Below, one piece after another: positions 2,116-6,104 of a DNA stretch of 64,000 bases (position 1 is the first letter of the stretch; every line of letters starts with the position of its first letter). This stretch comes from Escherichia phage vB_EcoM_ECO78. Where the stretch lies: the sequence record PP526941.1; one strand, given 5' to 3'. Both the position numbers and the translations under genes were made by a program. The notes under the pieces are model-generated. The model saw nothing but the letters and a program-made list of their open reading frames with translations, was not told where the DNA came from and did not search any database.

Positions 2116-2679
2116 TTATTTGCTTAGTTTAGTTATTATAGCTTCGGCAGCAGCTTTTAGCTTAGATGCGGTGTTAATACGATTTTTAATTTCAGTATAC
2201 GCATCGCCAAGAACATCAAGGCTATCGGAATAAACACTTACACTATTGCGTTCGCTATTTGAAATAGAACCTTTAGTTTTACGATCAAAATCAGTGTACA
2301 CGTCTTGAAGATCACGGGCTGCCTTCTTTGCATCATCCAATGCATCAAGAGCTTTATTCAAAGCATTAACATATTTTTTAGTATCGAACATATTCTTAGA
2401 AATTTTAACAGGTGCACGTTCAGGAGTAGCTAAGGCAGATTTAGGAACCTGAGCGCCTGATGCTAATTTCTTAGAAATTTTGAAAAATGCTTTATTGAAT
2501 TTATTTTCTTGACTCATCGTAAAAGAACTATTATCAATGTTATACATTTCAATAGCTTTAGCTTTCCACTTAAGAAAATCGCCACGGTCTTTTGGGTCTA
2601 ATTGGAAGAATACTTTAGTAAGATCTGCTTCAGATGGTAATTTTGCTGCTTCGGTTAAAAATTCGGCGTAGGTTTTCAT
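2116..2679 (-). CDS. internal-protein-like capsid-targeted protein (IPIII-like), 187 aa
   Basis: N-terminus MKTYAEFLTEA resembles the T4 internal-protein capsid targeting sequence; AGGA RBS. Confidence 0.6.
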   Translation of the reverse strand: MKTYAEFLTEAAKLPSEADLTKVFFQLDPKDRGDFLKWKAKAIEMYNIDNSSFTMSQENKFNKAFFKISKKLASGAQVPKSALATPERAPVKISKNMFDTKKYVNALNKALDALDDAKKAARDLQDVYTDFDRKTKGSISNSERNSVSVYSDSLDVLGDAYTEIKNRINTASKLKAAAEAIITKLSK

Positions 2680-2761
2680 TTAAAATCCTTGAAATAATTT
2701 ATTGGTTATTAATTATTTATCACGTTGTTATATGTAACAGTATTATCCGAGCGATTCAAAC

Positions 2762-2790
2762 TAAAAAGCCCCAACCTTTCGGCTGAGGCT
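2762..2790 (-). terminator. rho-independent terminator; copy 1 of a repeated ~29-bp element
   Basis: AGCCCCAACCTTTCGGCTGAGGCT hairpin followed on the minus strand by UUUUU; near-identical to 3318-3345. Confidence 0.5.
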
Positions 2791-2797
2791 AAGAATG

Positions 2798-3271
2798 TTA
2801 TTTGATTTGTTTAGCAGACCAAATGCGGTCTTTAATAATTTTTTGGATGTCTTCAACATATTCAAGAGAGTGAACATGTGGGTTATCTTTGAAACTATAA
2901 GCACGAGCTAACTTTTGGCCTTCGGTTTTGATTACTAAAAGCTCTTTAAGGATAGCTTCATATTTAGCGATAATGCCTTTAACAATATTTTTTTCTTGTG
3001 CAGCTTTAGGATCTGCTTTAGGAGCAGGTTTACCCGAAGCCTTTGCAAAAGCAGCTCCAGTAGCAACTAAACTTTTCCAAGCCATACTAACTGCATTCCC
3101 TGTAAATCCTTCTGCTTTCATATCGCGAGCAAATTGGAATCGTGATTCATCGGAAGCATCTTTATAGGAATATTTACCCGCGGCAATGGCAGCTTTTGCA
3201 ACAGCTTGAATTTCGGTGCTAGATGCTTCATTTAACACCGCTTCATTTAAAAATTGAGCATATGATTTCAT
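2798..3271 (-). CDS. internal-protein-like capsid-targeted protein (IPII/IPIII-like), 157 aa
   Basis: N-terminus MKSYAQFLNEA (CTS-like); AGGAA RBS; minus-strand TATAAATA late promoter upstream. Confidence 0.6.
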   Translation of the reverse strand: MKSYAQFLNEAVLNEASSTEIQAVAKAAIAAGKYSYKDASDESRFQFARDMKAEGFTGNAVSMAWKSLVATGAAFAKASGKPAPKADPKAAQEKNIVKGIIAKYEAILKELLVIKTEGQKLARAYSFKDNPHVHSLEYVEDIQKIIKDRIWSAKQIK

Positions 3272-3307
3272 CTTATTTCCTGTTTTAATTCGTGGTTTTA
3301 ATATACT

Positions 3308-3315
3308 TATTTATA
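3308..3315 (-). promoter_or_regulatory. T4-type late promoter TATAAATA (minus strand)
   Basis: Exact TATAAATA on the minus strand about 35 nt upstream of the ATG at 3271. Confidence 0.55.
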
Positions 3316-3317
3316 CT

Positions 3318-3345
3318 AAAAAGCCCCAACCTTTCGGCTGGGGCT
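3318..3345 (-). terminator. rho-independent terminator; copy 2 of the repeated element
   Basis: AGCCCCA-ACCTTTCGGC-TGGGGCT hairpin followed on the minus strand by UUUUU; ends the non-coding block 3346-3656. Confidence 0.55.
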
Positions 3346-3656
3346 AAGCCTTGCGGCAACCTTGTCGGGGTTCCACCTGCTAAGGCAAGTGTTTGTACGA
3401 AACGCCGGGATTCGAACCCGGTTACCAAGCAGTTGACGCTACTCAATATTTTTAAAAGGCCATATCTCGACCATATCCGAACGTTCCGTCAAAAACGCTA
3501 CTCGGCTTACGGCAAAGATATTTCCTCGAATCGATAATTCGGTGCGCCGTTTCTGCTGTGATGTAAGGGGGCATTAACCGATCGCAAAGATTTGTTAATG
3601 CCAGTCCTTACCCAGGGAACATCAGTCCGACGACTTACCGGTAGCGACCCGGTTTC
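3346..3656 (-). ncRNA. candidate stable small RNA(s), positionally like T4 rnaC/rnaD at the distal end of the tRNA cluster
   Basis: 310 bp with no ORF of 60 aa or more on the transcribed strand; locally GC-richer; T-arm-like CCGGG-TTCGAAT-CCCGG on minus strand; terminator directly downstream. Confidence 0.35.
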
Positions 3657-4007
3657 TTAATATTCTTTTAAAGCATCAATCTGTTCACGGCGTTTACGCC
3701 ATAAATCAATTGCTTCATACGCAGATTCAGCATTTCGAATTAGCCGACATTTATATAAAGACTTATGATTTTGATATTGTGTAGATAACGGAATTTTATC
3801 TAAAAGGTCTTTACGTTCAAAATATTCGTAACCATCTAAACCAAATGAACGATTTTTAAGAAATTGCCAATGTCCAAATTCGTTTTCAACATAAACATAA
3901 TCTGCATGCTGATAAAGTAAATTAATTACACGTTCAGAAATAACAGTATCATTATGATTAAAATAGAATGTTAAATCATGAACTACTAAATAAACATTAC
4001 CTTTCAT
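3657..4007 (-). CDS. hypothetical protein, 116 aa
   Basis: ATG with GAGGAAA RBS immediately downstream of tRNA-Arg. Confidence 0.55.
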   Translation of the reverse strand: MKGNVYLVVHDLTFYFNHNDTVISERVINLLYQHADYVYVENEFGHWQFLKNRSFGLDGYEYFERKDLLDKIPLSTQYQNHKSLYKCRLIRNAESAYEAIDLWRKRREQIDALKEY

Positions 4008-4025
4008 ATTTTCCTCACTTATAAT

Positions 4026-4101
4026 TGGTCGAGGCAGTAGGGATCGAACCTACGACCCAGGACTTAGAAGGTCCTTGCTCTTCCTTCTGAGCTATGCCCC
4101 G
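4026..4101 (-). tRNA. tRNA-Arg (anticodon TCT), CCA encoded
   Basis: Manual fold: acceptor CGGGGCA/TGCCTCG, anticodon loop CTTCTAA, T-loop TTCGATC. Confidence 0.8.
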
Positions 4102-4105
4102 TAAT

Positions 4106-4181
4106 TGGGGTGACCGATGGGAGTCGAACCCATGACTACGAGAATCACAATCTCGAGTTCTACCAACTAAACTACGGCCAC
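4106..4181 (-). tRNA. tRNA-His (anticodon GTG), CCA encoded, no encoded G-1
   Basis: Manual fold: acceptor GTGGCCG/CGGTCAC, anticodon loop TTGTGAT, T-arm ATGGG-TTCGACT-CCCAT. Confidence 0.7.
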
Positions 4182-4294
4182 ATTAATACCTACTCCAACA
4201 ATCAAGATGTCTTCACACGAAATTAAGAGAAGAGTGATCAGTTCAACCCTATAATCGCGTCAAGTAGATATTAATGTGACAGTTGTCACAAATT

Positions 4295-4369
4295 TGGCGG
4301 ACGTGATAGGATTCGAACCTATAACCAATCGCTTAACAGGCGATCGCTCTGCCATTGAGCTACACATCC
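4295..4369 (-). tRNA. tRNA-Asn (anticodon GTT), CCA encoded
   Basis: Manual fold: acceptor GGATGTG/CACGTCC, anticodon loop CTGTTAA, T-arm ATAGG-TTCGAAT-CCTAT. Confidence 0.75.
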
Positions 4370-4373
4370 AAAT

Positions 4374-4460
4374 TGGTGGGGAGTGATGGAGTCGAACCAC
4401 CCGAGTCGCAATGACAATGGATTTACAGTCCACACCGCTACCTCTACGGGATAACTCCCC
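4374..4460 (-). tRNA. tRNA-Tyr (anticodon GTA), class II long variable arm, CCA encoded
   Basis: Manual fold: acceptor GGGGAGT/ACTCCCC, anticodon loop CTGTAAA, T-loop TTCGACT; 87 nt. Confidence 0.75.
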
Positions 4461-4473
4461 TTAATTCTTAATT

Positions 4474-4548
4474 TGGTGGCCCTGGGTGGAATTGAACCAC
4501 CATCTGGCGATTATGAGTCGCTTGCTTGAACCTTCCAGCTACAGGGCC
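4474..4548 (-). tRNA. tRNA with anticodon CAT (Met or lysidine-type Ile2), CCA encoded
   Basis: Manual fold: acceptor GGCCCTG/CAGGGCC, anticodon loop CTCATAA, T-arm GGTGG-TTCAATT-CCACC. Met versus Ile cannot be decided from sequence. Confidence 0.7.
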
Positions 4549-4556
4549 AAATTTTC

Positions 4557-5039
4557 TTATTTTATGTAATATTTATTTAAAAACTTTCTAGCTTGAGTAT
4601 GGCTAACATTTATAGCGTTTGCATAATTTTTAATAAAACCTCGTTCATCCATATTAAAATTTTCTAATATTTTTAATCGTCTAGTTATCTCATCTTGACT
4701 TAAGGTACTTGCATTATTTTTAGAAATTTTTTCTAAGGACTGTGCCGAGTGTTTTCTACCATTAAAATTAAAATTTTTAGATTTTGGAGGAAATCTAGCA
4801 TTTAATCTCGCATCTTTTGTATTTTGATTATTAGTTGCGCAATATATGTTATTTAATGAATATGGTCCTTTATCGCCGAAACGGCACATGCAGTATTCAT
4901 GACCCTTTCTTCCACGCTTATCATAATTTCCCGTCGATTTCCACCAATGCAGCCATTCATCAAAAGTTAAATTCCATTCAATGTTTCTACGTATAGCAGA
5001 ATTCCGCTGAGAAATATATTTTGCATAATCTTCTTTCAT
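4557..5039 (-). CDS. putative homing-endonuclease-like protein (Cys/His-rich core plus C-terminal HTH-like tail), 160 aa
   Basis: Sits between the two tRNA blocks, where T4 carries segB; motif GHEYCMCRFGDKGPYS...NNQN and basic C-terminus resembling an endonuclease DNA-binding domain. Track start is GTG; ATG at 5037-5039 preferred. Confidence 0.45.
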   Translation of the reverse strand: MKEDYAKYISQRNSAIRRNIEWNLTFDEWLHWWKSTGNYDKRGRKGHEYCMCRFGDKGPYSLNNIYCATNNQNTKDARLNARFPPKSKNFNFNGRKHSAQSLEKISKNNASTLSQDEITRRLKILENFNMDERGFIKNYANAINVSHTQARKFLNKYYIK

Positions 5040-5086
5040 CACAAATTTCTCTACTTATTCAATACACTGAGCTAAATCAGCAAAAC

Positions 5087-5176
5087 TGGCGGAGGCGATA
5101 GGATTTGAACCTATGAGTCGCCGGAGCGACTGCCGGTTTTCAAGACCGGTGCATTAAACCACTCTGCCACGCCTCC
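5087..5176 (-). tRNA. tRNA-Ser (anticodon TGA), class II, CCA encoded
   Basis: Manual fold: acceptor GGAGGCG/CGCCTCC, anticodon loop CTTGAAA, long variable arm, T-loop TTCAAAT. Confidence 0.8.
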
Positions 5177-5178
5177 AG

Positions 5179-5252
5179 TCTCCATACAAGGATTTGAACC
5201 TTGGACCTCCTGATCCCAAATCAGGCGCTCTACCAAACTGAGCTACACGGAG
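5179..5252 (-). tRNA. tRNA-Pro (anticodon TGG), CCA not encoded
   Basis: Manual fold: acceptor CTCCGTG/TATGGAG, anticodon loop TTTGGGA, T-arm CAAGG-TTCAAAT-CCTTG. Confidence 0.75.
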
Positions 5253-5262
5253 TAAATTAAAT

Positions 5263-5336
<74 letters not shown>

Positions 5337-5341
5337 AAATT

Positions 5342-5428
5342 TGGTGCGAGAAGTGGGACTCGAACCCACAAGGAAATCATTCCGCAGCATTTTAAGTGCT
5401 GTGCCTTTACCAATTTGACCATTCTCGC
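5342..5428 (-). tRNA. tRNA-Leu (anticodon TAA), class II, CCA encoded
   Basis: Manual fold: acceptor GCGAGAA/TTCTCGC, anticodon loop CTTAAAA, long variable arm, T-arm GTGGG-TTCGAGT-CCCAC. Confidence 0.8.
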
Positions 5429-5429
5429 G

Positions 5430-5502
5430 CTGGGAATAAAGGACTCGAACCTTTGCATCCTGGAATCAAAATCCAGTGCCTTACCAACTTGGCTAATTCC
5501 CA
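5430..5502 (-). tRNA. tRNA-Gln (anticodon TTG), CCA not encoded
   Basis: Manual fold: acceptor TGGGAAT/ATTCCCA, anticodon loop TTTTGAT, T-arm AAAGG-TTCGAGT-CCTTT. Confidence 0.8.
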
Positions 5503-5588
5503 ATTATTAACAAAGGCTCTCAAACAAGAACCCTTGATGATAGAGGGTATTAATCAGTGCGGTATGAATTAATAATAACAAATAATTC

Positions 5589-6104
5589 TTAAAGCAAATT
5601 AAACATTTTAACGGTCGGCAAAACAATTTCTTCTTCTATATAAGAGTATTTAACACTCTCAACTACACGCAAAAAATCATAATCATAATACTCAGAAGCA
5701 TTACCTAAAATATTAATAAGTCCTTCAAGCACTTTATTACCATTCGCAAAGAATAAGTCAAATACACGTTCTTCGTCTTCTTCGGATTTATTACCAAGGT
5801 CAACTTCTATATCAAATACCTTTTTAATGAATTCTGGATAAAGTTGTTCTGAGAACAGTCCTTCAACCAAGTATTCATAAATAAAAAGCGATTGCTCGCT
5901 GAACAAGCCATTACCACAATAGCGTTCAGCTTTAGTACTAGAATGTCTGCTTTTAAACTTCTTTAAAAGATATTGGAATTGTAAGATTTCATGCTCTTCT
6001 ACGCCAAACAATGTTTTGGTTTTATAGTTATCACCGTCATTTTCCCAGGTAGTGACATCAATTACGTAACCCTGCGGAATTGTAGTACCTAAACAAATAT
6101 TCAT
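5589..6104 (-). CDS. hypothetical early protein, 171 aa from the ATG
   Basis: Track start is GTG at 6113; ATG at 6102-6104 lies 2 nt after the stop of the upstream ORF (coupled). Confidence 0.5.
   Translation of the reverse strand: MNICLGTTIPQGYVIDVTTWENDGDNYKTKTLFGVEEHEILQFQYLLKKFKSRHSSTKAERYCGNGLFSEQSLFIYEYLVEGLFSEQLYPEFIKKVFDIEVDLGNKSEEDEERVFDLFFANGNKVLEGLINILGNASEYYDYDFLRVVESVKYSYIEEEIVLPTVKMFNLL

Follow-up and report, generated by a model that had tools for sequence, protein, structure and literature searches.

The stretch of DNA analysed here (the window) comprises 64,000 nt of Escherichia phage vB_EcoM_ECO78 (PP526941.1), a Tequatrovirus with a T2-type tRNA region, and the features described below lie on its minus strand unless stated otherwise. 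A first-pass annotation had marked a structured, non-coding block of 310 bp at nt 3346 – 3656, at the distal end of the tRNA cluster. Sequence comparison with other T4-like phages identifies this block, with high confidence, as the rnaD-rnaC gene pair, which specifies the species 2 and species 1 RNAs; that confidence concerns identity and anatomy, and does not extend to function. Both RNAs are already known, and their occurrence in this phage is an ordinary find, T4 rnaD and rnaC having been known for about 50 years.

The tRNA cluster consists of 10 genes (nt 4026 – 5502) and ends with tRNA-Arg(UCU) (nt 4026 – 4101), recognised by both ARAGORN and Rfam. It is followed by an ORF of 116 aa (nt 3657 – 4007, 351 nt) belonging to phrog_3355 (E = 9.6e-54), the TAA stop codon of which overlaps the start of the rnaD orthologue (about 120 nt, nt 3541 – 3660). 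The limits first given for the block need a small shift at the upstream side, where the functional block begins some 4 nt earlier, at approximately nt 3660. An A/U-rich spacer, GAAUUA (nt 3535 – 3540), separates rnaD from the rnaC orthologue (139 nt, nt 3396 – 3534) and forms the 5' leader of the latter, resembling the AAUUAU or AAUAAU leaders that stand before rnaC, and after tRNA-Trp-CCA, in Karamvirus, Gelderlandvirus and an Erwinia phage. Downstream of rnaC are a conserved, structured 3' trailer of the tRNA-cluster transcript (50 nt, nt 3346 – 3395), kept in T4, Aplg8 and Kha5h, and an intrinsic terminator detected by a terminator scan (AGCCCCAGCC-GAAA-GGUUGGGGCU plus UUUUU, nt 3317 – 3345). 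The hairpin and U-run noticed beforehand are real: a stem of 10 bp, with 7 G-C pairs, occupies nt 3345 – 3322 and runs into TTTTT, and the terminator is also annotated in Kha5h, Aplg8 and G4507. The ends of the rnaD and rnaC transcripts in the window were taken over from the T4 annotation.

The block occupies the 3' end of the tRNA-cluster transcription unit, before the conserved trailer and the intrinsic terminator. An independent promoter for it was considered and rejected, since the late-promoter motif TATAAATA was not found between nt 3346 and the tRNA genes, and sigma-70-like sites were not above chance. The local G+C content is raised, as had been remarked (46 – 50% over nt 3275 – 3650 vs 24 – 35% in the flanking ORFs), and the description of the block as structured is borne out by its minimum free energy (MFE) of -131.9 kcal/mol, compared with -102.5 ± 5.6 kcal/mol for 100 dinucleotide shuffles (z = -5.2), none of which was as good.

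The suggested fit to the T4 species 1 and 2 RNAs holds over the full length of the block, which aligns end to end with T4 rnaD, rnaC, trailer and terminator, and the same DNA is labelled rnaD and rnaC in the curated records of Aplg8, Kha5h, RB5 and RB27. Matches to the block were present in 810 phage records, and at least 80% of it is covered in 679 of these. T4 rnaC (T4s001, NC_000866 70908 – 71046), also at the distal end of the tRNA cluster and with the same trailer and terminator, is identical at 135 of 139 positions (97.1%); two of the four substitutions turn U-A pairs of arm P3 (see below) into U-G, and there is no structural difference. T4 rnaD (T4s002, NC_000866 71053 – 71171) shares the 5' hairpin, the closing stem and the overall long hairpin, and is identical in 106 of 121 columns of a global alignment, just 87.6%, owing to a divergent apical hairpin in which compensatory changes have occurred. 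In T4, rnaD begins 1 nt after tRNA-Arg and the ORF at nt 3657 – 4007 is missing, whereas in the window this ORF lies between the two. The ORF is real, as first supposed, but it gives no sign of a different RNA. The intervening ORF is a common T2-type arrangement, shared by G4507, Kha5h and Aplg8, which still carry and annotate rnaD or rnaC, and by T2L (PMC2330249); a phrog_3355 CDS is likewise located 3' of the tRNA array in Karamvirus. A start directly after tRNA-Arg is a feature of the arrangement, and is not essential to the rnaD family.

Covariation in rnaC was examined in 31 distinct homologues from at least nine phage genera (alignment A6), and indicates that the RNA is a tRNA-like four-way junction, composed of a 7-bp acceptor-like stem (P1), a T-arm, a long arm (P2) and a 10-bp arm (P3). 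The consensus pairing is formed in 89.7% of cells, vs 37 – 46% when the 3' partners are slid by 1 – 3 columns, and 32 pairs have changed on both sides, vs 6 – 10 in the slid controls. None of 500 shuffles matched the observed pairing or covariation score, and a MAFFT alignment (A3) agrees. MFE folds of seven sequences from separate lineages each arrived independently at the same four-way junction. The earlier statement that the block has no complete cloverleaf is correct for the canonical form, but comparative analysis points to a junction that is cloverleaf-like, and the compensatory changes that had been proposed as a check are present in both genes (for rnaD see below). A covariance model of the rnaC family (R1) has one match in the whole window, at nt 3533 – 3394 (153.6 bits); its weak matches are genuine tRNAs, the best being tRNA-Ser (26.6 bits).

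The 5' strand of P1, CGAUUCG (nt 3527 – 3533), pairs with nt 3404 – 3398, and the 3' strand, CGUUUCG (nt 3398 – 3404, defined by covariation and by alignment to T4), is followed by U-ACA. Pair 3 is G-C in 19 of the 31 sequences, A-U in 11 and G-U in one. Pairs 4 and 5 form a tandem U.U mismatch in 30 of the 31; in the PM2 homologue they are U-A, U-A. In the window and in T4, U-ACA occupies the place of the tRNA discriminator base and CCA; the Marfavirus and PM2 homologues have U-CCA after the stem. The ends of P1 coincide with the T4-annotated mature ends, at -1 and +2. Directly abutting the 3' strand of P1, with no linker, as in tRNA, is the T-arm, CCGGG-UUCGAAU-CCCGG (nt 3405 – 3421), an element that the first-pass annotation had correctly picked out. 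It is paired in 100% of cells; at the middle pair, 17 sequences have U-A, 13 have G-C and one has U-G. The T-loop consensus is lost in the MY742-type lineage. The T-loop could also pair with the 5' strand of P1 (94.9% of cells), which leaves an alternative conformer possible; this helix shows no change on both sides, and was not adopted in the model.

Arm P2 (nt 3457 – 3526) has about 25 bp with bulges, and 19 of 25 pairs have changed on both sides among the 31 sequences. Its apical loop of 8 nt, UUUGACGG (nt 3493 – 3486), is invariant except for a concerted change in Marfavirus and a variant in PM2. Arm P3 (nt 3423 – 3448) has 10 bp, of which 9 have changed on both sides, with 94% of cells paired, and carries a loop of 6 nt, CGUCAA (nt 3438 – 3433). 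By the comparative model, these two arms stand where a tRNA has its D and anticodon arms.

The P2 loop (UUGACG) and the P3 loop (CGUCAA) are predicted to base-pair with each other as a kissing loop. This helix has 6 pairs, formed in 99.5% of cells in the 31 sequences, and in all six Marfavirus sequences UUGACG/CGUCAA is replaced by UUGGCG/CGCCAA, exchanging an A-U for a G-C pair. The covariation is confined to one lineage and may therefore represent a single evolutionary event. It may reflect either an intramolecular contact or dimerisation, which covariation does not distinguish. To our knowledge, this fold has no Rfam entry.

Among known RNAs, one close in topology is tRNA, particularly class II tRNA with its long variable arm, which shares the four-way junction. 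The likeness extends to a 7-bp terminal stem that passes without linker into a T-stem of 5 bp capped by a UUCGAAU loop, to the location in tRNA arrays with tRNA-like spacing, and to the weak recognition of real tRNAs by the rnaC model. Covariation supports an acceptor stem stacked on a T-arm with a UUCRANY loop. The differences are considerable: rnaC is 139 nt in length, has a tandem U.U in its stem and a U-ACA 3' end, is rejected by tRNA detectors, and has no anticodon, D-arm or anticodon arm with 5-bp stem and 7-nt loop, P2 and P3 having instead about 25 bp and 10 bp, and loops of 8 and 6 nt, respectively. In tRNA the D-loop contacts the T-loop, whereas in rnaC the two other arms would kiss each other. 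YrlA (RF02553) and other tRNA mimics are likewise stable non-coding RNAs that copy part of a tRNA, including the T-arm. In YrlA, however, the tRNA-like module lies inside the molecule, whose ends pair as the Ro-binding stem, whereas the ends of rnaC make up the acceptor-like stem. RF02553 had no match in the block at E <= 10; its weak matches in the rest of the region span pairs of genuine tRNAs.

Comparison of rnaD sequences shows two hairpins: a small one that is invariant and, 3' of it, a long one in which the base is conserved and the tip can be exchanged. The consensus fold comprises 32 pairs, with 96.3% of cells paired vs 32 – 52% when the partners are slid, and 9 pairs have changed on both sides, vs 1 – 4 in slid controls. 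Stem variation was counted across 15 sequences. In the 5' hairpin H1, ACCGG-GUCGCUA-CCGGU (nt 3637 – 3653), the closing pair is A-U, G-C or G-U, and the other four pairs and the 7-nt loop never vary. The closing stem S1 of the long hairpin is formed by GUCGUCG (nt 3628 – 3634) and CGGCG(C)AC (nt 3549 – 3542); the 3' strand, CGGCGCAC (nt 3542 – 3549), lies 1 nt short of the T4-annotated 3' end. S1 has 7 bp, with a single bulged C, and shows no variation among the 15 sequences. The apical hairpin, GGGUAAGG...GGCAUUAAC / GUUAAUGCC...CCUUAC in the window (nt 3563 – 3613), is a variable cassette, and at least four unrelated apical sequences are found on the one conserved base, including the T4/window, G4507/L008/BW-1 and L054 types. 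In phage BW-1, a convergent SNP in rnaD arose in three independent selections on host ECOR34 (PMC12685909). This SNP maps to the apical hairpin, where it restores a C-G pair and lowers the predicted MFE from -25.9 to -31.0 kcal/mol.

Classical work on T4 described the processing of rnaD and rnaC by RNase E and RNase P. Together with the sequence context, this suggests that host tRNA-processing enzymes would excise both RNAs from the polycistronic tRNA precursor. RNase E would probably cut in the A/U-rich AAUUA spacer, RNase P may act at the acceptor-like stem of rnaC, and the 3' ends of both RNAs would be trimmed by exonucleases; being excised in this way, rnaD and rnaC would accumulate as stable RNAs. 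For T4, RNAC has been seen on Northern blots as a stable RNA of about 140 nt, and both RNAC and RNAD were placed among the late RNAs (PMC9697503).

The function of both RNAs has been described as unknown (PMC3014915, PMC9697503, PMC12685909). Their interest lies in this function having gone unassigned since the 1970s in RNAs present in hundreds of sequenced T-even phages. A tentative reading, held with low confidence, is that rnaC may be a trans-acting tRNA mimic by which a host or phage tRNA-binding factor is occupied or titrated, with rnaD as an accessory RNA in its own right, the folded tip of which would be of importance in some hosts. In such a role, rnaC would present solely the acceptor/T-arm half of a tRNA, with no anticodon. 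A stricter version, about which we are more doubtful, is that rnaC might be a dedicated tRNA mimic on a rigid body locked by the kissing loops, serving as a decoy or inhibitor of a host tRNA-directed factor, and rnaD a host-specific counter-measure whose tip tracks host variation. Candidate targets of such a decoy would be a defence nuclease, a tRNA-modifying toxin or a processing enzyme. rnaC is conserved in T4-like phages of Enterobacterales. Were the decoy reading true, the T4 species 1 and 2 RNAs would gain a function and the kissing-loop fold would constitute a new RNA family. The comparative model offers handles for mutagenesis, pull-downs and host-range tests, namely the tRNA-like stem with its T-arm, the kissing loops, the tandem U.U and the rnaD cassette tip with its adaptive SNP.

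An unlikely alternative to a role in trans is that the block acts in cis alone, as a structured 3' region from which the upstream tRNAs gain processing sites and a shield against exonucleases, in which case rnaC and rnaD would be stable by-products. This would suit their position in Tequatrovirus, at the 3' end of the tRNA transcript and adjoining trailer and terminator, and about 50 years have passed with no function found (PMC3014915). It would also suit the loss of each gene in some lineages. Dhakavirus VR5 has a precise deletion of rnaC and retains the trailer, and no rnaD was seen at the rnaC loci of Karamvirus, Kanagawavirus and Marfavirus, so that neither RNA is universally needed. However, many genera carry rnaC within the tRNA array or apart from it, in places other than the 3' end. 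In Karamvirus, Gelderlandvirus and the Erwinia phage it is found between tRNA-Trp and tRNA-Gly with tRNA-like spacing, and in Karamvirus the rnaC segment is the sole part of the block that can be aligned with the window (query 124 – 274, 84 – 87% identity). rnaC likewise follows tRNA-Trp in Citrobacter phage Ursula, where a CDS lies between it and tRNA-Gly, and in Kosakonia phage 305 it comes after a CDS annotated as 'tail protein'. Complementary loops and arm geometry have been kept through complete replacement of the stem sequences, which goes beyond what a spacer or protective hairpin needs, and the rnaD SNP of BW-1, which restores structure and was selected on one host in three independent instances (PMC12685909), also argues against a role in cis alone.

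A part for rnaC in translation, as a tRNA-like RNA that can be charged (a miniature tmRNA-like molecule or an aminoacylated mimic), appears improbable. An acceptor/T-arm minihelix is present, and in the PM2 homologue the acceptor stem is paired throughout, with G3.U70, and U73 is followed by an encoded CCA; the Marfavirus homologues also have U73 and CCA. The window and T4, however, have A-U at 3:70, the tandem U.U and a U-ACA 3' end, and with this T4-type end rnaC is no obvious substrate for CCA-requiring enzymes. The tRNA-like domain of tmRNA (SsrA) is comparable in placing an acceptor/T-arm 'top half' on a non-tRNA body with tertiary (pseudoknot-type) pairing, but rnaC is much smaller and lacks the G3.U70 pair (except in PM2), the encoded ACCA and the tag frame. 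ARAGORN, run for tRNA and tmRNA, reported neither in the window, T4 and Karamvirus copies and found no tag reading frame; the block is also without a match to the tmRNA models of Rfam.

It is very improbable that the block represents a decaying remnant of tRNA genes, i.e. pseudogenes under no selection, as might be supposed from a T-arm in the absence of a cloverleaf. Every helix shows compensatory changes across at least nine genera, and the 97% identity of rnaC to T4 is equally at odds with decay. No tRNA was found at nt 3346 – 3660 by ARAGORN or RF00005, even at E <= 10. In the copy of G4507 alone, ARAGORN calls a 94-nt tRNA-Lys(ttt), using the internal sequence ACGGAACG as acceptor strand, a call that would favour a tRNA remnant. 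This pairing was rejected, as it has no covariation support, is unpaired at one position in 17 of 31 sequences, and is equalled by 500 of 500 shuffles.

Slightly harder still to sustain is the view that the block codes for small proteins, although CDSs are annotated here in many GenBank records. Most records leave rnaC and rnaD unannotated or carry wrong entries ('hypothetical protein', or the 94-nt 'tRNA-Lys' of G4507). The absence of minus-strand ORFs of 60 aa or more was confirmed, the longest overlapping the block being of 53 aa (nt 3285 – 3446, TTG start) and 40 aa (nt 3452 – 3574). On the plus strand there is an antisense ORF of 81 aa (nt 3292 – 3537, GTG start), whose frame is disrupted in T4 and no fewer than five further relatives; neither it nor the other open frames have a PHROG match. 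A conserved small ORF, named beforehand as a finding that would speak against a structured RNA, did not emerge from the comparison on either strand, the frames being interrupted or shifted in T4, L005, L008, L045, L054 and L061. A coding reading was rejected on these grounds; base-pairing, and not codons, governs the substitutions.

The idea of a new processed RNA with no relation to T4 species 1 and 2, prompted by the ORF that, unlike in T4, separates the block from tRNA-Arg, and compatible with the lack of an Rfam family match, is almost certainly wrong, since the block aligns end to end with the T4 genes, rnaC being nearly identical and rnaD having T4's conserved base with a variant of its apical part, and Rfam has no model for either RNA. 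The Rfam 15 scan that had been recommended, run on nt 2500 – 6000 at E <= 10, recovered the 10 tRNAs and otherwise only noise; no match within the block was credible (isrK, 15 bits; anti-hemB, 14 bits).

A blastn search with rnaD and rnaC gave no match in 5,426 complete E. coli genomes, from which it appears that there is no host homologue. Two other patterns searched in IMG/VR recovered lineages already found and chance matches, and no new lineage. The pattern TTCGAGGA...AACCNGG...CCNGGCG, searched in metagenomes and bacterial genomes, gave no bacterial copy among the loci listed; these included random GC-rich matches and at least two new copies of rnaC.

The block at the promoter-distal end of the tRNA cluster (about 3346–3660, minus strand) is the already known rnaD/rnaC pair, and the first-pass annotation had recognised a real feature and its kind correctly. 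In the annotated T4 genome, tRNA-Arg is followed by rnaD (species 2 RNA, 119 nt), a 6-nt spacer and rnaC (species 1 RNA, 139 nt), and the alignment of the block to this part of T4 runs over its full length, trailer and terminator included. On the minus strand rnaD lies at 3660..3541 (106/121 identical to T4 rnaD) and rnaC at 3534..3396 (135/139 identical to T4 rnaC); the corresponding DNA is labelled rnaD and rnaC in the curated relatives Aplg8, Kha5h, RB5 and RB27. The proposed likeness to T4 species 1 and 2 is therefore right and the option of a novel processed RNA wrong, the DNA being orthologous to T4 rnaD/rnaC, and the chance that the block is an unrelated RNA is negligible. In Rfam, named earlier as a covariance-model check, no family of release 15 matches the block, and no homologue of either RNA was found in the complete E. 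coli genomes searched.

Ten tRNA genes lie in the region of the block on the minus strand (4026–5502; ARAGORN and Rfam). A blastn search with 3300–3680 matched 806 phage records, nearly all Tequatrovirus, with Shigella phage SH7 the best match (98.4%), and since the tRNA region and block match hundreds of T-even phages, the window belongs to a T4-like coliphage. The sole difference in arrangement from T4 is the 116-aa ORF 3657–4007 (minus strand; phrog_3355, E = 1e-53, no function assigned), which is real and lies between tRNA-Arg and rnaD as first described, an arrangement shared with G4507, Aplg8 and Kha5h. Its TAA stop overlaps the first conserved rnaD bases. ORFs without assigned function have been described in the tRNA region of T2L (PMC2330249).

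The physical properties noted from the sequence were also borne out. The block has 46–50% G+C against 24–35% in neighbouring ORFs, and its 343-nt RNA folds with an MFE of -131.9 kcal/mol, compared with -102.5 ± 5.6 for shuffles (z = -5.2). The strong terminator is a 10-bp hairpin with 7 GC at 3345..3322, followed by a T-run, and the T-arm CCGGG-TTCGAAT-CCCGG is present on the minus strand at 3421..3405, where neither ARAGORN nor the Rfam tRNA model finds a tRNA.

Homologues of rnaC were gathered by outward-stepping blastn and IMG/VR pattern scans, giving 31 distinct sequences from Tequatrovirus, Karamvirus, Kanagawavirus, Kagamiyamavirus, Moonvirus, Gelderlandvirus, Mosugukvirus (PM2), Marfavirus and several unclassified phages. 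In blastn comparison of the window with Karamvirus, alignment is confined to the rnaC segment (84–87%). The same four-way junction appears in the MFE structure of each of seven sequences, folded independently and drawn from separate lineages. In the alignment of all members to an rnaC covariance model (R1), standard pairs fill 89.7% of pair cells, against 37–46% with partners slid by 1–3 columns, and 32/53 pairs show two-sided changes, against 6–10 in slid controls; none of 500 shuffles matches the observed values, and a plain MAFFT alignment agrees. The compensatory changes proposed earlier as a check are present, and the fold is under evolutionary constraint.

In rnaC numbering (window coordinate = 3533 - (position - 1)), the acceptor-like P1 pairs 1–7 with 130–136; its pair 3 alternates between A-U and G-C, and a tandem U.U at pairs 4 and 5 is present in 30/31 sequences. 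The long arm P2 (8–77) is irregular, has about 25 bp and carries the 8-nt apical loop UUUGACGR; an A-rich linker (78–85) follows it. P3 (86–95 with 102–111) has 10 bp, nine of them covarying, and the loop CGUCAA. The T-arm (113–117 with 125–129, loop UUCGAAU) abuts the 3' strand of P1 without a linker, as in tRNA. The annotated mature ends of T4 rnaC fall at -1 and +2 relative to P1. Positions 2–8 (GAUUCGA, 3526–3532) are also complementary to 119–125 of the T-loop (UCGAAUC, 3409–3415); this pairing holds in 94.9% of cells across the family, with two-sided changes at no pair, and might represent a second conformer or just follow from UUCGAA being a palindrome.

The loops of P2 (UUGACG) and P3 (CGUCAA) are perfect complements, and both are invariant where both stems have been completely rewritten, PG7 for example having AAAUUGUGA/UCGCAAUUU in P3 in place of UGAGUAG/CUACUUA. 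All six Marfavirus sequences show a concerted change to UUGGCG and CGCCAA. Across the 31 sequences, 99.5% of cells in the six loop-loop pairs are paired, and PM2 keeps 4/6. The lengths of P3 (10 bp), the kissing helix (6 bp) and the P2 tip (6 bp) suggest that the three could form one stack of about 22 bp, which would run back beside the lower 19 bp or so of P2 with a conserved 3–4-nt bulge as the turn. Contact between the loops of two rnaC molecules, as a dimer, is equally compatible with the covariation.

For rnaD, 15 distinct sequences give a consensus of 32 pairs, with 96.3% of cells paired (32–52% when slid) and two-sided changes at nine pairs (1–4 in slid controls). In the 5' hairpin, (A/G)CCGG-GUCGCUA-CCGG(U/C), the loop never varies and the closing pair covaries; the closing stem (7 bp, bulged C) is invariant, and the internal region contains one covarying U-A/A-U pair. 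The apical hairpin changes as a whole from phage to phage, the common base carrying at least four cassette types. The sole functional hint in the literature concerns this hairpin: a single SNP (T>C at 164264) was reported in all three lines of phage BW-1 adapted to E. coli ECOR34 (PMC12685909). On the deposited genome (L376, OR125554.1) the change corresponds to A>G in the RNA strand, within the apical hairpin, where CACAG...CUAUG becomes CACAG...CUGUG; a C-G pair is regained, the G4507-type sequence and pair result, and the predicted MFE falls from -25.9 to -31.0 kcal/mol. The pair-restoring interpretation is our own and is not made in that paper. On that reading, the SNP speaks for a host-dependent importance of the folded rnaD tip.

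The T4 RNAs of this region are described as products of the tRNA-cluster transcript (PMC2330249), and as no late-promoter motif occurs between block and tRNA genes, the same is most likely true of the window. Both RNAs are probably cut out of the tRNA precursor by host tRNA-processing enzymes: RNase P would act on the acceptor/T-arm minihelix of rnaC, and the A/U-rich leader of rnaC would be an RNase E-type site. Such a minihelix is a classical RNase P substrate shape. Work on T4 in the 1970s–80s, which agrees with this excision, reportedly found an RNase E-dependent dimeric precursor of species 2 and species 1, and RNase III is said to cleave species 1 in vitro within the long arm.

The roles of RNAC and RNAD are stated as not known in reviews and recent papers (PMC3014915; PMC9697503; PMC12685909); RNAC of T4 has been detected by Northern blot, and both are classed as late RNAs (PMC9697503). 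As a discovery the block is of low interest, the pair being already known; what remains of interest is some 50 years without an assigned function, the lack of an Rfam model and widespread mis-annotation, and the comparative structures provide testable handles. Tentatively, rnaC might act in trans by mimicking a tRNA, its acceptor/T-arm half serving to engage a tRNA-binding factor.

That the block works only in cis, as a module for processing or stability, is unlikely. In Karamvirus, Gelderlandvirus and an Erwinia phage, rnaC stands between tRNA-Trp (CCA encoded) and tRNA-Gly behind a leader AAUUAU or AAUAAU, similar to the A/U-rich GAAUUA between rnaD and rnaC in the window; in Citrobacter phage Ursula it likewise follows tRNA-Trp, with a CDS before tRNA-Gly, and in Kosakonia phage 305 it occurs alone after a CDS. 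Dhakavirus VR5 (L007, 1495–1700) keeps rnaD, trailer and terminator, rnaC being cleanly deleted between spacer and trailer (…GGCGCACCG|AACACUUGCC…); rnaD and rnaC are independent modules.

That rnaC is a chargeable, tmRNA-like RNA is improbable. The 3' end is U-CCA in Marfavirus (loci L013, L014, L021, L031, L033 and L174) and PM2; in the T4 type it is U-ACA. The homologue of Pectobacterium phage PM2 (L366, 330–469; L373) has an acceptor stem paired throughout, with G3.U70, then U73 and an encoded CCA, and so looks chargeable by AlaRS. Further R1 matches were all weak and all genuine tRNAs, tRNA-Ser at the top. That the block consists of neutral tRNA remnants is highly improbable. In the Enterobacter phage MY742 type (L017, L040, L110) the T-loop UUCGAAU is replaced by UGCAUGC, and all helices and both kissing loops are kept.

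Still less credible is a block encoding small proteins. 'Hypothetical protein' CDSs are annotated over its DNA in many GenBank records, and an antisense ORF of 81 aa (3292–3537) overlaps it. On the transcribed strand the longest ORFs in the block have 53 and 40 aa, in line with the stated absence of any of 60 aa or more. The antisense ORF was rejected as a gene, its frame being broken in T4 and several relatives and having no PHROG match; the conserved small ORF that would have spoken against an RNA was not found. Most GenBank records give the rnaC DNA as 'hypothetical protein' CDSs, with rnaC/rnaD labels in few genomes, and in G4507 (L005, 1673–1766) and G4500 it is annotated as a 94-nt tRNA-Lys(ttt), an annotation artefact.

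Downstream of the block, the minus-strand ORFs 2116–2679 and 2798–3271 are paralogues (both phrog_2280), and a hairpin at 2767–2790 after the first downstream ORF (AGCCTCAGCCGAAAGGTTGGGGCT) nearly repeats the rnaC terminator at 3322–3345 (AGCCCCAGCCGAAAGGTTGGGGCT), which looks like a duplicated ORF-plus-terminator module. The T4 late-promoter motif TATAAATA occurs at 3308–3315 (minus strand), directly past the rnaC terminator and before ORF 2798–3271; this motif is over-represented across the window (22 matches, 9 expected).

Within the tRNA cluster, the first 16 nt of a tRNA-Thr, identical to the 5' end of Kha5h tRNA-Thr, remain at 5066–5081 (minus strand) after tRNA-Ser. The other 60 nt or so are replaced by ORF 4557–5042 (minus strand, 161 aa, phrog_16521), which has no Pfam match; at its position, related phages have ORFs carrying HNH or homing endonuclease annotations. 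With this remnant and the ORF in its place, tRNA-Thr was apparently lost through insertion of a mobile ORF. A 113-nt non-coding spacer at 4182–4294 (minus strand), between tRNA-Asn and tRNA-His, holds the hairpin GTGACAACTGTCAC and a promoter-like TTGACG...TATAGG, and the gap between these two tRNAs is also found in Aplg8 and G4507.
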